Shown piece after piece: positions 2,085 through 7,534 of a stretch of 14,492 nucleotides of DNA. Made by a program: the position numbers and the translations under genes. The notes under the pieces were generated by a model that was given only the letters and a program-made list of their open reading frames with translations, ran no database searches and was not told the DNA's origin. The first letter of the stretch is position 1, and every line of letters starts with the position of its first letter. Source of the DNA: a virus; the UHGV virus genome UHGV-1980068, one strand, 5' to 3'.

Positions 2085-2550
2085 ATGAGCCGTGTTCTGT
2101 GTGTGGTGATTATTGTCCTGGCGGGTGGCTGTGGTGCGCTGTGGCTGGCAACAGACCATTACCGCGATAACGCCATCACCTACAAAGTGCAGCGCGATAA
2201 AAAAGCCAGAGAGCTGGAGCTGGCAAACGCCACCATTACTGATATGCAGGTGCGCCAGCGCGATGTTGCTGCGCTCGATGCAAAATACTCGAGGGAATTA
2301 GCCGATGCGAGAGCTGAAAATGAAACTCTGCGTGCTGATGTTGCTGCTGGTCGTAAGCGCCTGCGGATCAACGCCACCTGCTCCGGTACCGTGCGTGAAG
2401 CCACCGGCACCTCCGGCATGGATAATGCAACCGGCCCCCGACTGGCAGACACCGNNNNNNNNNNATTTCACCCTCAGAGAGCGGTTGATGATGATGCAGA
2501 AGCAGCTGGAAGGGGCACAGGAATATATCCGCACTCAGTGCCTGAAATAA
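2085..2550 (+). CDS. Rz: Rz i-spanin (inner-membrane spanin subunit), frame broken by a 10-N gap
   Basis: N-terminal approximately 120 aa closely recall lambda Rz (MSRV...[45 protein letters not shown]...AAGRxRL). After the gap the homologous C-terminus (FTLRERLxxMQKQLEGxQxYIxxQC) continues in the +1 frame to the stop at 2548-2550. The tool's 2085..2642 tail is a frame artefact. Confidence 0.85.
2305..2488 (+). CDS. Rz1: Rz1 o-spanin (outer-membrane lipoprotein spanin subunit), embedded in Rz in an alternative frame
   Basis: Translation [22 protein letters not shown]...[21 protein letters not shown] has a lipobox-like VVSAC and Pro-rich body, recalling lambda Rz1. After the N gap, att tca ccc tca gag agc ggt tga gives ISPSERG-stop, matching the lambda Rz1 C-terminus. 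Confidence 0.75.
2455..2464. other. Assembly gap (10 N) inside Rz/Rz1
   Basis: Run of n characters. Both Rz and Rz1 change frame across it, so the true gap length is not 10 nt. Confidence 0.99.
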
Positions 2551-2851: not shown

Positions 2852-3703
2852 ATGGCAAAGCTGGACTGGAAAAAACTGGAGCAGGTATTCCGACGCGAAC
2901 ATGCCAGAACTGGCATAAAACTTCAGGACTGGTGTCGACAGAACAATATCTGCTATGGCACGGCTCGTCGGTACATAAAACTGCGCAAAAACTCCCCCAA
3001 AAATACAGAGGAAAGTGCGCAGAAAAATGCGCAAAAAAGTGCGCAAATTGACACTCAAAAAAGCGCACAAAAAAATGCGCATGGAGCTGATGACGAGTCC
3101 AGTAATGACGAGTCTTACGGCGATGATGGCAGTGATGAAAAATGCGCAAAAAACTGCGCAAATTCGGCAGAAACGAAACGCAACAGCAGATCGGGTAATC
3201 CTCACCCCGTTGCCCGGTTTAGCGACCGTAACACCCACGCCGTGAGACACCGTGGATATGCGAAGTATCTTGAGGCAGATAACCTCATGGATGATGCGTC
3301 CGATATGGTGCTGTTCGATGAACTGGTGTTCACCCGTGCCCGCGCACTTTCAGTAACAGGAACACTGAAAAAAATGTTCGCCGACCTGAAAGAGGCGGCT
3401 GACGTGGAAACCCGTGTTGCCCTGTACGACAAAATACTTAAAGCCGAACAGGCTCTTGACCGGAATATTGCCCGTATCGAGTCAATTGAACGCTCATTGC
3501 TGACGCTGGACGTTCTGGCGGAAACAGCACCAAAACTTCGTGCTGACCGGGAAAGAATCAACGCCGCCAGAGATAAACTCAGAGCGGAAACCGATATTCT
3601 GACCAGCCAGCGCCGGGGGGTTATTACGCCAGTCAGTGACATCGTGTCATCGCTGCATGAAATGAGTAATTCGGGGAGACTGGATGACATTCCGGAAGAA
3701 TGA
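2852..3703 (+). CDS. Putative terminase small subunit (TerS), 283 aa
   Basis: Sits immediately upstream of the large terminase and overlaps its start by 20 nt. N-terminal basic, HTH-like region (GIKLQDWCRQNNICYGTARRYIKLRK). Low-complexity SAQKNAQKSAQ middle. C-terminal coiled-coil. Confidence 0.6.
   Translation: MAKLDWKKLEQVFRREHARTGIKLQDWCRQNNICYGTARRYIKLRKNSPKNTEESAQKNAQKSAQIDTQKSAQKNAHGADDESSNDESYGDDGSDEKCAKNCANSAETKRNSRSGNPHPVARFSDRNTHAVRHRGYAKYLEADNLMDDASDMVLFDELVFTRARALSVTGTLKKMFADLKEAADVETRVALYDKILKAEQALDRNIARIESIERSLLTLDVLAETAPKLRADRERINAARDKLRAETDILTSQRRGVITPVSDIVSSLHEMSNSGRLDDIPEE
3016..3160. repeat. Phased array of TGCGCA palindromes (six perfect, one GCGCA) within terS; candidate pac/TerS-binding site
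   Basis: TGCGCA at 3016, 3028, 3040, 3076, 3143, 3155 and GCGCA at 3063. Spacings of 12-13 bp within each cluster. Two near-identical approximately 30-bp copies (aaaaatgcgcaaaaaa[g/c]tgcgcaaatt) at 3022-3049 and 3137-3164. Confidence 0.6.
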
Positions 3704-5390
3704 ACCGCGATGTGATGAACCGTCAGAAATGACCGGGACCGAACAACGTCTGTTCATCATGACTAAACTGAGCAATCCCTGGTGGCGGCTCAATCATCTC
3801 TACAAAATACAGAACGAAAAAGGTGAGCTGGTCACCTTCAGAATGCGACCGGCGCAGCGCCAGTTGTTCCGGAGCATGCACAATAAAAATATTATCCTGA
3901 AAGCACGCCAGCTGGGGTTTTCCACGGCCATTGATATTTATCTTCTCGACCAGGCATTATTCATACCGCATCTCAAATGCGGGATTGTCGCTCAGGATAA
4001 ACAGGCTGCCAGTGAAATTTTCCGCACCAAAATTGCTGTACCGTTTGATCATCTTCCTGACTGGCTGAGAGCCTCATTCACCATCGTTGAACGTCGTAGC
4101 GGAGCCAGCGGTGGCTATATCCTGTTTGGTCACGGCTCGAGTATCCAGGTGGCAACCTCATTCCGTTCAGGTACGGTGCAGCGCCTGCATATCTCAGAGC
4201 ACGGCAAAATTTGCGCAAAATATCCGGCTAAGGCGAAAGAACTGCGAACCGGTACACTTAATGCCGTCTCTGATGAGTGCATTATCTTTGATGAATCCAC
4301 TGCTGAAGGTGTGGGTGGCGATTTTTACGAGATGAGTAACCGGGCACAGGAAATCACTGCATCAGGGCTGGCGCTGACGCCACAGGATTATAAATTCCAT
4401 TTTTACGCCTGGTGGCAGGATCTCAAATACAGCGCCAGAGTGCCGGAAAGCGGACTTAAGCTGTCACGGGAAAAAACAGCGTATTTTTCTGCGGTTGAAA
4501 AAGCAATGAACATCACGCTTACCGATGAGCAGAAACACTGGTACATCTGCAAGGAAACTGAACAGCGTGAGGAAATGAAGCAGGAATTTCCCTCAACGCC
4601 ACAGGAGGCGTTTCTGACGTCAGGACGACGGGTGTTCAGTGCGGAAAGCACGCTGCAGGCAGAGTCATTCTGTTCGCCACCGCTGATTGTTTATGACATT
4701 GAACCGGTTACAGGAACGAAGACCAAGGCGCAGTCTCTGCGTGACGGGAATAAAGCCGAACAGCACCGGACGCTGATGAATTATCTGCTGGTCTGGGAGC
4801 TGCCGGATCCGGATGAAGAGTATGTATGCGGAGCAGATACCGCTGAGGGGCTGGAGCACGGAGACCGCTCATCGCTGGATATCATCAGATGCAGTAATGG
4901 TGAGCAGGTGGCTCACTGGTTTGGTCATCTCGATGCGGAGCTTTTCGCTCATCTCATTGCGCAGGTCTGCCGTATGTACAACAACGCGTTTGTGGGGCCG
5001 GAGCGTAACAATCACGGACATGCCGTTATCCTGAAACTCAGGGAACTCTATCCGACGCGTTATATCTACAACGAACAGCACCTTGACCAGGCATATGACG
5101 ACGATACGCCCCGTCTTGGCTGGCTGACAACCCGCCAGAGTAAACCGGTCCTGACAGAGGGAATGAAAACGCTGCTGAATAACGGCCTGTCGGGGATCCG
5201 CTGGTCGGGCACATTATCAGAAATGAACACCTACGTTTATGACGCGAAAGGCTCCATGAATGCACAGGAAGGCTGTTTTGATGATCAGCTTATGAGCTAC
5301 ATGATTGCCCAGGAGATGCGCGCCAGAATGCCGGTGAGGGTAAAACAGAAAACGGATAAACGCAGAACCACACACTGGATGGCTCACTGA
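3684..5390 (+). CDS. Terminase large subunit (TerL), 568 aa
   Basis: GGGGAGA RBS. N-terminal ATPase-like region with Walker-A-like ILKARQLGFST and Walker-B-like hydrophobic-DE (IIFDEST). C-terminal nuclease-like region. Translationally coupled to the downstream portal (ATGA overlap). Confidence 0.8.
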   Translation: MTFRKNEPRCDEPSEMTGTEQRLFIMTKLSNPWWRLNHLYKIQNEKGELVTFRMRPAQRQLFRSMHNKNIILKARQLGFSTAIDIYLLDQALFIPHLKCGIVAQDKQAASEIFRTKIAVPFDHLPDWLRASFTIVERRSGASGGYILFGHGSSIQVATSFRSGTVQRLHISEHGKICAKYPAKAKELRTGTLNAVSDECIIFDESTAEGVGGDFYEMSNRAQEITASGLALTPQDYKFHFYAWWQDLKYSARVPESGLKLSREKTAYFSAVEKAMNITLTDEQKHWYICKETEQREEMKQEFPSTPQEAFLTSGRRVFSAESTLQAESFCSPPLIVYDIEPVTGTKTKAQSLRDGNKAEQHRTLMNYLLVWELPDPDEEYVCGADTAEGLEHGDRSSLDIIRCSNGEQVAHWFGHLDAELFAHLIAQVCRMYNNAFVGPERNNHGHAVILKLRELYPTRYIYNEQHLDQAYDDDTPRLGWLTTRQSKPVLTEGMKTLLNNGLSGIRWSGTLSEMNTYVYDAKGSMNAQEGCFDDQLMSYMIAQEMRARMPVRVKQKTDKRRTTHWMAH

Positions 5391-7534
5391 TGAAAAATGA
5401 AACTAATACCATGGCGACGAAAAACGACAACGGAGCCACGCCGCGTTTTTCTCAGCGCCAGTTACAGGCGCTTTGTTCTGATATTGACAGTCAGCCTAAA
5501 TGGCGCGATGCCGCAAACAAGGCCTGTGCGTATTACGATGGTGACCAGTTGCCACCGGAAGTTCTCCAGGTGTTGAAAGATCGCGGTCAGCCGATGACCA
5601 TCCATAACCTCATCGCGCCTACCGTTGATGGTGTTCTGGGTATGGAGGCCAAAACGCGGACTGATCTGTTGGTGATATCAGATGATCCTGATGATGAAAC
5701 AGAAAAACTGGCTGAAGCTATTAATGCTGAATTTGCCGATGCTTGCCGCCTTGGAAATATGAATAAAGCCCGTTCTGATGCCTATGCGGAACAAATCAAA
5801 GCGGGGCTCAGCTGGGTGGAGGTCAGACGGAACAGCGATCCGTTCGGGCCTGAGTTTAAGGTGTCTACTGTCAGCCGGAATGAAGTGTTCTGGGACTGGC
5901 TTAGCCGGGAGGCTGATTTAAGTGACTGCCGCTGGCTGATGCGCCGCCGCTGGATGGATACCGATGAGGCAAAAGCCACATTTCCGGGAATGGCTCAGGT
6001 TATCGATTATGCCATTGATGACTGGCGTGGTTTTGTCGATACCACGGTTACTGAAGGCCAGCCCAGTCCGTTGATGAGTGCATGGGAAGAGTATCAGTCA
6101 TGGGATCGACAGCAGAACGAATGGCTTCAGCGTGAACGCCGTCGTGTGCTGCTTCAGGTGGTTTATTACCGTACATTCGAGCGTCTTCCGGTGATTGAAC
6201 TCAGTAATGGACGGGTGGTGGCCTTTGATAAAAATAATCTGATGCATGCGGTGGCTGTGGCATCCGGGCGGGTGCAGGTGAGAGTCGGGCGGGTAAGTCG
6301 TATTCGTGAAGCCTGGTTTGTGGGACCGCACTTTATTGTGGATCGCCCCTGCAGTGCGCCGCAGGGGATGTTCCCGCTGGTTCCCTTCTGGGGATACCGG
6401 AAGGATAAAACCGGGGAGCCTTACGGGCTGATTTCCCGGGCCATTCCGGCACAGGATGAGGTGAATTTTCGTCGTATAAAACTGACGTGGTTGCTTCAGG
6501 CCAAACGCGTGATTATGGACGAGGATGCCACCCAGTTGTCAGACAACGATCTGATGGAGCAGATCGAGCGTCCGGATGGCATTATTAAACTGAATCCGGC
6601 CCGAAAAAATCAGAAAAGCGTTGCTGATGTTTTCCGGGTTGAACAGGATTTTCAGGTTGCCAGCCAGCAGTTTCAGGTCATGCAGGAGTCGGAAAAACTT
6701 ATCCAGGACACGATGGGGGTTTATTCCGCATTTCTCGGGCAGGATTCAAATGCATCGTCCGGCGTGGCGATCAGCAACCTGGTGGAGCAGGGAGCCACAA
6801 CCCTTGCCGAAATCAACGATAACTACCAGTTTGCCTGCCAGCAGGTGGGAAGGCTGTTGCTCGCTTATCTTCTTGATGACCTGAAAAAGCGGCGTAATCA
6901 TGCGGTGGTGATTAATCGCGATGATCGTCAGCGTCGCCAGACCATTGTCCTCAATGCTGAAGGTGATAATGGTGAACTGACCAATGATATTTCAAGGTTA
7001 AATACACATATTGCGCTGGCTCCTGTTCAGCAGACACCGGCGTTTAAGGCACAGCTTGCACAGAGAATGTCAGAGGTTATTCAGGGGCTGCCGCCTCAGG
7101 TGCAGGCTGTTGTGCTCGATCTGTGGGTTAATCTTCTGGATGTGCCGCAGAAACAGGAATTTGTCGAACGTATTCGTGCGGCGCTGGGGACGCCAAAATC
7201 ACCGGATGAGATGACTCCGGAAGAGCAGGAAGCGGCAGCACAACAGCAGGCGCTGGAGCAACAGCAGGCAGAACTTCAGATGCGCGAAATGACAGGCCGG
7301 GTGGCTAAACTGGAAGCAGAAGCTGCCAGGGCACGCGCGGCTGCGCAACGGGATAATGCTGGCGCACAACGGGATGTCGCCGCGGCACAGGGACAGCGTT
7401 ATGTGGATGCGCTTAACCAGGCACATACGGCAGAAATCATTACCGGCATACAGAATATGGAACAGGAGCAGGAAGTTCTTCAGCAACAGATGCTGCATAC
7501 ACTACAACAGCGGATGCATGAAATGCCGCTCTGA
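5390..7534 (+). CDS. Portal protein, 714 aa
   Basis: Large protein immediately after TerL with a stop/start overlap. Long C-terminal Q/A/E-rich coiled-coil (QQQALEQQQAELQMREM...AKLEAEAARARAAAQ) typical of podovirus-type portals. Size and position fit. Confidence 0.75.
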   Translation: MKNETNTMATKNDNGATPRFSQRQLQALCSDIDSQPKWRDAANKACAYYDGDQLPPEVLQVLKDRGQPMTIHNLIAPTVDGVLGMEAKTRTDLLVISDDPDDETEKLAEAINAEFADACRLGNMNKARSDAYAEQIKAGLSWVEVRRNSDPFGPEFKVSTVSRNEVFWDWLSREADLSDCRWLMRRRWMDTDEAKATFPGMAQVIDYAIDDWRGFVDTTVTEGQPSPLMSAWEEYQSWDRQQNEWLQRERRRVLLQVVYYRTFERLPVIELSNGRVVAFDKNNLMHAVAVASGRVQVRVGRVSRIREAWFVGPHFIVDRPCSAPQGMFPLVPFWGYRKDKTGEPYGLISRAIPAQDEVNFRRIKLTWLLQAKRVIMDEDATQLSDNDLMEQIERPDGIIKLNPARKNQKSVADVFRVEQDFQVASQQFQVMQESEKLIQDTMGVYSAFLGQDSNASSGVAISNLVEQGATTLAEINDNYQFACQQVGRLLLAYLLDDLKKRRNHAVVINRDDRQRRQTIVLNAEGDNGELTNDISRLNTHIALAPVQQTPAFKAQLAQRMSEVIQGLPPQVQAVVLDLWVNLLDVPQKQEFVERIRAALGTPKSPDEMTPEEQEAAAQQQALEQQQAELQMREMTGRVAKLEAEAARARAAAQRDNAGAQRDVAAAQGQRYVDALNQAHTAEIITGIQNMEQEQEVLQQQMLHTLQQRMHEMPL

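Follow-up and report, generated by a model that had tools for sequence, protein, structure and literature searches.

The stretch of DNA analysed here, 14,492 nucleotides (nt) of the virus genome UHGV-1980068 (the window), represents the late region of a lambdoid, Shiga toxin (Stx)-phage-like Escherichia coli prophage, and it carries an array of the palindromic hexamer TGCGCA inside the gene for the small terminase subunit, terS. This gene occupies positions 2852..3703 of the plus strand and encodes a protein of 283 amino acids, which matches phrog_370 ("terminase small subunit") over its full length (residues 1-283, E 1.3e-116) and thus belongs to the 933W-type TerS family. It lies upstream of terL, the gene for the large terminase subunit (3684..5390, plus strand, 568 amino acids), whose matches include phrog_2, phrog_24361 and further families of the terminase large subunit, and the two genes overlap by 20 nt. 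A P22-like portal protein is encoded at 5390..7534 on the plus strand (Pfam PF16510, E 4e-129), and a capsid gene is also found in the window as part of the same late region. Upstream, a non-coding gap of about 300 bp (2551-2851) separates terS from an Rz-like spanin open reading frame (ORF; 2085-2642), and an assembly gap of 10 N (window positions 2455-2464) falls inside the spanin region.

The terS region is 99% identical to that of Escherichia phage PhiR12_3 and about 89% identical, in two pieces, to those of VT2-Sakai and some 200 other Stx-converting phages; the stretch that does not align with the VT2-Sakai-type phages is the repeat region itself. Searches with TerS returned 296 protein matches, and those that carry names are called "terminase". 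The terS-terL synteny is kept in all loci long enough to show it. Pfam and PDB sequence searches with TerS gave nothing meaningful and no match to any solved TerS. As for the packaging type, terL is annotated as "T4-like headful" in the 99%-identical PhiR12_3, and papers on terminase classification assign the TerL type of this phage to "headful (933W type)". TerL is the presumed nuclease and motor, and as such would make its cut at the array site.

The array consists of seven exact hexamers and one degenerate box, spans 2982-3160 (gene nt 131-309) and lies throughout on the plus strand. The exact copies start at 2982, 3016, 3028, 3040, 3076, 3143 and 3155, and the degenerate AGCGCA starts at 3062 (GCGCA from 3063). 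Box 0 (AAAC-TGCGCA-A, 2978..2988, core 2982-2987) is read as L-R in frame 2 and overlaps the codons for K-L-R-K next to the predicted helix-turn-helix (HTH) domain. Boxes 1-3 (3012..3046) follow each other in exact 12-bp steps and are read as x-A-Q in frame 3. The degenerate box (3062..3067) keeps the GCGCA core in a frame shifted by one, and phage GER2 has a complete TGCGCA at the aligned position. Box 4 (AAAA-TGCGCA-T, 3072..3082, core 3076-3081) is read as N-A-H, and it is mutated to TGTGCA in a 94%-identical relative (L012). Boxes 5-6 (3139..3161), again 12 bp apart, are read as C-A in frame 1. Five boxes at 3016-3081, together with box 0, therefore precede a box-free spacer of 61 bp (3082..3142) that encodes an acidic peptide, and two boxes at 3143-3160 follow it. 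Within the spacer, an exact 10-bp direct repeat, ATGACGAGTC, is present twice, at 3090-3099 and 3105-3114, 15 bp apart.

The original prediction, made from the letters of the sequence, had placed six perfect TGCGCA palindromes and one GCGCA between 3016 and 3160, and the exact positions confirm that count. The range was too narrow, since the box at 2982 lies outside it and extends the array to 2982-3160. The predicted spacing of about 12 bp within clusters was also borne out: it is 12 bp within 3016-3040 and within 3143-3155, while the other intervals are 22, 14 and 67 bp. Two near-identical copies, described as 30 bp long, do exist, but they measure 28 bp (3022-3049 and 3137-3164) and match at 27 of 28 positions. 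This duplicate is translated in two frames, as K-N-A-Q-K-S-A-Q-I in one copy and as E-K-C-A-K-N-C-A-N in the other. A consensus drawn from 71 boxes reads AAA-N-TGCGCA-R in one orientation throughout, so that each box is an asymmetric unit of about 11 bp around a palindromic core and the boxes follow one another as direct repeats. None of them contains GATC, the nearest copy of which lies at gene nt 338.

The number of hexamers in the window as a whole is not unusual (10, against a shuffle mean of 6.9), and it is their clustering that stands out: seven fall within 180 bp, where 500 first-order Markov simulations gave a maximum of four. When the TerS protein was held fixed and synonymous codons were redrawn from the phage's own codon usage, the resampled genes held 0.95 TGCGCA on average and six at most, and none of 5000 runs reached seven. 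In 50 kb of PhiR12_3, 7 of 23 TGCGCA fall in this cluster, and the extended motif AAANTGCGCAR occurs six times, always in the cluster and nowhere else on either strand.

An AlphaFold2 model of TerS places three helices at residues 6-20, 24-31 and 35-41 (pLDDT, the predicted local confidence, about 88-92 over residues 11-40), followed by disorder over residues 46-131 or so (pLDDT below 50 for 46-114 and most of 118-131) and a long helical hairpin at 145-252. The N-terminal helices form a predicted three-helix HTH (residues 6-41; 2867..2974, plus strand) with YGTARRY, residues 35-41, as the predicted recognition helix. In Foldseek searches with this domain, the top PDB matches were mostly HTH DNA-binding domains, at non-significant values (E >0.5); the full-length model returned coiled-coil look-alikes only. 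The predicted architecture of HTH, disordered linker and helical hairpin would fit that of a small terminase. The boxes sit in the DNA that codes for the disordered segment, where the constraint on the protein is lowest, and the peptide they encode is of low complexity.

The array is under selection as DNA and not as peptide. Within terS, the hexamer is found in each of the three frames, as cTG-CGC-A (L-R) at 2982, as nnT-GCG-CAn (S/N-A-Q/H) at 3016-3076 and as TGC-GCA (C-A) at 3143 and 3155. Codon choice points the same way in 12 representative genes from eight genera (E. coli, Salmonella, Citrobacter, Dickeya, Yersinia, Serratia, Paramixta and Aeromonas). In the A-Q/H dipeptides of the linker, alanine is encoded by GCG in 47 of 55 cases, compared with 53 of 213 in the C-terminal domain, and the base before that codon is T in 51 of 55 linker cases, compared with 49 of 213, while ten different residues are found in front of the dipeptide. 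Homologues from Salmonella, Citrobacter, Dickeya, Yersinia, Serratia, Paramixta and Aeromonas, with 39-65% TerS identity, hold three to seven exact TGCGCA at gene nt 130-300. Those at about 40% identity, such as the Aeromonas prophages, have five to eight exact copies directly after the HTH-coding part, in all three frames and at irregular spacings of 7-23 bp (mode 9-14).

The positions of the boxes, their frames and the residues they encode thus shift among homologues, and the hexamer is kept. Linkage alone cannot produce the retention of an exact hexamer over such evolutionary depth. The 1.5-kb flanks of the homologous loci contain few copies (0-3 per locus). The layout in two clusters is not universal, as the boxes form a single uninterrupted cluster in the homologues from Dickeya, Serratia and Paramixta and in most of those from Aeromonas; a box at gene nt 131, the position of box 0, is present in the E. 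coli, Salmonella, Citrobacter and Yersinia homologues. The earlier suggestion that the low-complexity peptide reflects selection on the DNA is upheld by the use of three frames, the synonymous-site bias in the 12 representatives and the persistence of TGCGCA at about 40% TerS identity.

The hexamer also varies together with the DNA-binding module of the protein. Across the TerS family, the C-terminal two thirds are conserved, and the N-terminal module and the repeats change together. In 62 distinct genes, we determined the commonest 6-mer of nt 100-330 without reference to any motif. Every gene with the window-type helix ARR(Y/H)(I/L)K, which is found in many genera, carried TGCGCA. Genes with ARTRIK, the 933W/Sakai type, had three to seven copies of (C/T)GATCAT at 12-bp steps, with GATCAT in every ARTR gene; ARTQIK, from a Salmonella group represented by one gene in the set, was accompanied by five copies of (T/C)GATCA, also at 12 bp; and AKRYIT, from a single Pectobacterium gene, by TTCGCA. 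Two unrelated N-terminal modules in Salmonella came with AAACGCAC or with TCCGTC/GACGGA. Among the 120 proteins listed, peptide proxies gave the same split between helix and hexamer, with no exception. A simple code in which RRY specifies TGCGCA and RT(R/Q) specifies GATCA was rejected as a general rule, since P1 PacA pairs ARRY with TGATCA.

Several individual genes illustrate the variety of these arrangements. In VT2-Sakai and other 933W/Sakai-type terS genes (L002 1303-2109, gene nt 142-190), three, four, five or seven (C/T)GATCAT are found at an exact 12-bp period, encoding IDHE, IDHK or TDHE, and their copy number varies between very close relatives; (C/T)GATCAT arrays likewise replace the TGCGCA boxes in loci L006, L025 and P0015. 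The terS of PhiR5_2 (L004 1301-2107) is a mosaic, in which a 933W-type HTH and GATCAT boxes are followed by a middle segment of the window type (NSRSGNPHPVARF), so recombination breakpoints must lie inside terS, downstream of the box arrays. In a group of Stx2a prophages (Stx2a_JNE122536 = LC727843, L009 ~2170-2700, and sister records LC7278xx), an insertion, annotated in E. coli genomes as "IS3 family transposase", cuts terS short immediately behind the third GATCAT box, and these prophages probably cannot package on their own. The two Salmonella genes with unrelated N-terminal modules have their own repeats: in one (L106, ~1620-1700), AAAAACGCAC occurs three times at the equivalent place, and in the other (L107, ~1620-1720), TCCGTC occurs twice and is followed by GGACGGACG twice, in inverted orientation. 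Judged by their sequences, these repeats suggest the same arrangement of a site next to an HTH with other specificities.

We consider it likely that the TGCGCA array at 2982-3160 is the TerS-recognition part of a headful packaging (pac) site, a candidate non-GATC variant of the P1 type. The original prediction of a pac site within terS is thereby strongly supported as a candidate, on the grounds that the hexamer is swapped together with the recognition helix and that TerL is of a class described as headful in the literature. According to the mechanism we propose, the HTH domains of an oligomeric TerS would each bind one of the direct-repeat boxes, and the A-tract-rich DNA, with boxes mostly one helical turn apart, would be bent or wrapped on the TerS assembly. 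The TerS-DNA complex would then recruit TerL, leading to a first cut nearby. The analogy with P1, and that analogy only, points to the 61-bp spacer at 3082-3142, between the five-box group at 3016-3081 and the downstream pair, as the most likely place for this cut, from which the headful packaging series would start.

Several observations weigh against this assignment or narrow it. Fewer than 150 bp separate the boxes from the DNA that encodes the HTH, and co-inheritance of linked sequence could account for their co-variation; the 12-bp unit varies in copy number between close relatives, as replication slippage would give. The boxes at 3143 and 3155 are also found in 933W-type genes that have GATCAT boxes upstream, and box 0 is present, coding for K-L-R-K, in a Salmonella gene whose other boxes are GATCA, so that protein sequence may be what maintains box 0. 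The box at 3155 falls within the codons of a conserved peptide, NCANSAETKR, and is kept, sometimes mutated, in genes with other HTH types, so that its conservation may partly reflect the peptide; not every box need be functional. The pairing of ARRY with TGATCA in PacA indicates that the residues that determine specificity are not just RRY versus RT(R/Q). No phage database record was found to begin or end in the repeat region, and several start at terL, apparently by convention. The integration host factor (IHF) consensus WATCAANNNNTTR, allowing at most one mismatch, was not found on either strand of 2900-3300, although, given the degeneracy of IHF sites, a search of this kind carries little weight. 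BLASTP detected no similarity between TerL and P1 PacB.

Other explanations of the array have to be set against recognition by TerS. The boxes might bind another protein, either a host nucleoid or regulatory protein or another phage protein, and could modulate late terS-terL transcription or serve a step that has nothing to do with packaging recognition. The evidence for selection on the DNA does not identify the binding protein, the co-variation of HTH and box could be linkage over less than 150 bp, and genes with another HTH retain some TGCGCA boxes. However, the hexamer changes with the TerS helix between phages of the same host species, which makes a host factor unlikely, and the position, orientation and two-cluster layout match those of P1 pac inside pacA. 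We know of no E. coli regulator with a TGCGCA-array consensus, and on balance we regard another binder as unlikely. A further idea is that packaging starts elsewhere, in the non-coding 2551-2851 or at some other site, and that the array is no more than a relic. In the window, the 300 bp upstream of terS are indeed non-coding, but a search of 2552-2851 found no repeat array there, the TerL class is described as headful and not as cos, and a relic would not stay exact across genera, all of which leaves this idea improbable.

It could also be that the array is a by-product of replication slippage, that is, a 12-bp unit amplified in an unconstrained low-complexity linker around a hexamer that has no function. 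The exact 12-bp periodicity, the segment duplicated at 27 of 28 positions, the varying copy number among close relatives and the predicted disorder of the linker are all what slippage would leave behind. It cannot explain why one hexamer occurs in three frames, why genera with about 40% TerS identity still have it, at irregular positions that do not align, why synonymous sites are biased in 12 lineages or why the remainder of the genes lacks the motif. The cross-genus retention and the synonymous-site bias have largely refuted this explanation already, and we give it very little weight. Another possibility is a role in the mRNA, in which the palindromic hexamers would pair as hairpins that tune the translation of terS and terL or the stability of the message. 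The RNA of 2970-3170 does fold better than expected (z = -4.0; -4.8 for 2976-3125), with stems made of TGCGCA pairs, but any GC-rich palindrome array in an A-rich context folds better than its shuffles. The excess is not conserved (z of -1.3 in Aeromonas, -1.8 in Dickeya, -0.65 in Pectobacterium and -1.3 in type D), and mRNA structure was rejected as the main explanation for that reason. The Pectobacterium and type D repeats are non-palindromic, and an Rfam search gave no family match; we therefore see hardly any room for this role. TGCGCA is the site of FspI and GCGC that of HhaI. Restriction-site avoidance or a decoy function would explain neither the co-variation nor the orientation of the flanks.

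With TerS recognition as the preferred reading, the array can be compared with known packaging sites. The closest parallel is found in P1. The pacA gene of the annotated P1 genome has TGATCA/G hexamers at nt 194, 201, 213 and 228 and again at nt 324, 336, 347 and 375; between these two groups are an IHF site (nt 256-268) and the cleavages that have been mapped (nt 276-285). P1 pac has been described as a 161-bp stretch of pacA in which seven hexamers each contain a Dam site; recoding the hexamers synonymously lowered the titre about nine-fold, and cleavage is controlled by Dam methylation (PMC10028697). Both arrays lie within the gene of the recognition subunit, right after the part that encodes the N-terminal domain (nt 194-375 in P1, 131-309 here), and both have two clusters of a 6-bp palindromic hexamer that are separated by DNA free of repeats (90 bp in P1, 61 bp in the window). 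In both, the hexamers are used in more than one frame and have the TGnnCA skeleton in common. A common skeleton is also apparent across the types in the hexamers TGATCA, CGATCA, TGCGCA and TTCGCA. The TGATCA hexamers of pacA (L109 30723-30909, nt 194-380) are coded as M-I-I-D-H, N-D-Q-H and G-D-H, and a D-H or D-Q peptide signature is common to P1 pacA and to the TerS linkers of the 933W type and the Salmonella GATCA type.

The proteins are also somewhat alike at their N-termini. Residues 3-45 of PacA (WDDHKKNF...NPNTARRYLRAFK) align with TerS 6-48, including NTARRY, and although the resemblance is weak (hhalign probability 51%, E 1.5e-4; BLASTP E 0.001), it suggests, at the level of sequence, a common origin of the two HTH domains. 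The systems differ in other respects. The hexamer is TGCGCA and not TGATCA/G, and without GATC in its boxes no Dam control is possible. An IHF site adjoins the cleavage point in P1, and no IHF consensus accompanies the window array. TerS beyond its N-terminal part shows no detectable similarity to PacA, and the phages themselves are of different kinds, a lambdoid Stx-phage-like podovirus type here and a myovirus plasmid prophage in P1. The array of the window would therefore represent a candidate pac built as a hexamer array in the P1 style, but in another terminase family and with another hexamer, insensitive to Dam. The literature that could be searched, which lacks most of the older subscription papers, yielded no account of a pac site in Stx or 933W-type phages, and an earlier description is possible.

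The arrays of 933W and VT2-Sakai, of which no published account was found either, are a sister variant: they share with the window the TerS family, the position, the 12-bp period, the number of boxes (3-7), the acidic spacer and the downstream TGCGCA. They differ in that the 933W boxes are (C/T)GATCAT, with a Dam site in each, and in the recognition helix, which is NTARTRIKMGK in 933W and GTARRYIKLRK in the window. By analogy with P1, the Dam site in each 933W-type box suggests methylation control of Stx-phage packaging.

Among the other well-known systems, P22 and SPP1 had been invoked by the original prediction as precedents for phased repeats bound by TerS. P22 is not such a precedent, because its pac consists of one asymmetric sequence of about 22 bp within gene 3 and not of a repeat array; what it has in common with the window is headful packaging and a pac inside the small terminase gene. 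SPP1 pac (pacL, pacC and pacR) comprises boxes bound by G1P on intrinsically bent DNA around the cleavage region, partly inside the small terminase gene. The window array is a candidate counterpart in so far as SPP1 is a headful phage with several TerS-binding boxes at pac, but its boxes are heterogeneous and of greater length, and some of the SPP1 site lies upstream of gene 1. SPP1 does not strictly serve as a precedent either; P1 is the best one. In lambda cosB, R3, R2 and R1 are bound by the winged HTH of gpNu1, with the IHF site I1, next to the nicking site. As is proposed for the window, a small-terminase HTH has multiple binding sites there; unlike the window, lambda is a cos system with fixed cohesive ends, in which sites of 16 bp lie upstream of Nu1 in mixed orientation.

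A broader proposal, which we put forward tentatively and at somewhat less than even chance, is that the TerS family consists of exchangeable specificity cassettes, each a recognition helix with its own box array in the neighbouring DNA that codes for the linker, of which there would be at least five pairs (TGCGCA, GATCAT/TGATCA, TTCGCA, AAACGCAC and TCCGTC/GACGGA). These would have a common ancestor with P1 PacA and pac, the TGCGCA type would be a Dam-independent derivative of a Dam-gated GATC ancestor, and the medically important 933W-type Stx phages would have a P1-like, methylation-gated pac, so far undescribed. If this is true, the swapping of cassettes would let co-resident lambdoid prophages, for example in enterohaemorrhagic E. 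coli (EHEC) strains with many of them, either keep packaging to themselves or capture the DNA of the others.

In a headful phage, the choice of DNA for packaging is set by the pac site, and with it the host or island DNA that can be transduced. The 933W-type packaging module is found in most Stx2 phages, in many Stx1 phages and in many other enterobacterial and Aeromonas prophages, and the array and its relatives provide a concrete candidate site with a simple sequence rule, together with natural specificity variants, TGCGCA versus GATCAT, that are paired with small changes in the TerS helix. Should the candidate hold true, packaging starts and lateral or generalised transduction from Stx-type prophages could be predicted, packaging specificity could be engineered, as has been done with P1 phagemids, and the reading of a hexamer array by a small-terminase HTH could be put to the test.

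A 368-bp contig labelled "Xanthomonas pisi" (NZ_JPLE01000258.1) encodes a peptide 99% identical to TerS residues 205-283, most likely as a contamination of that assembly.

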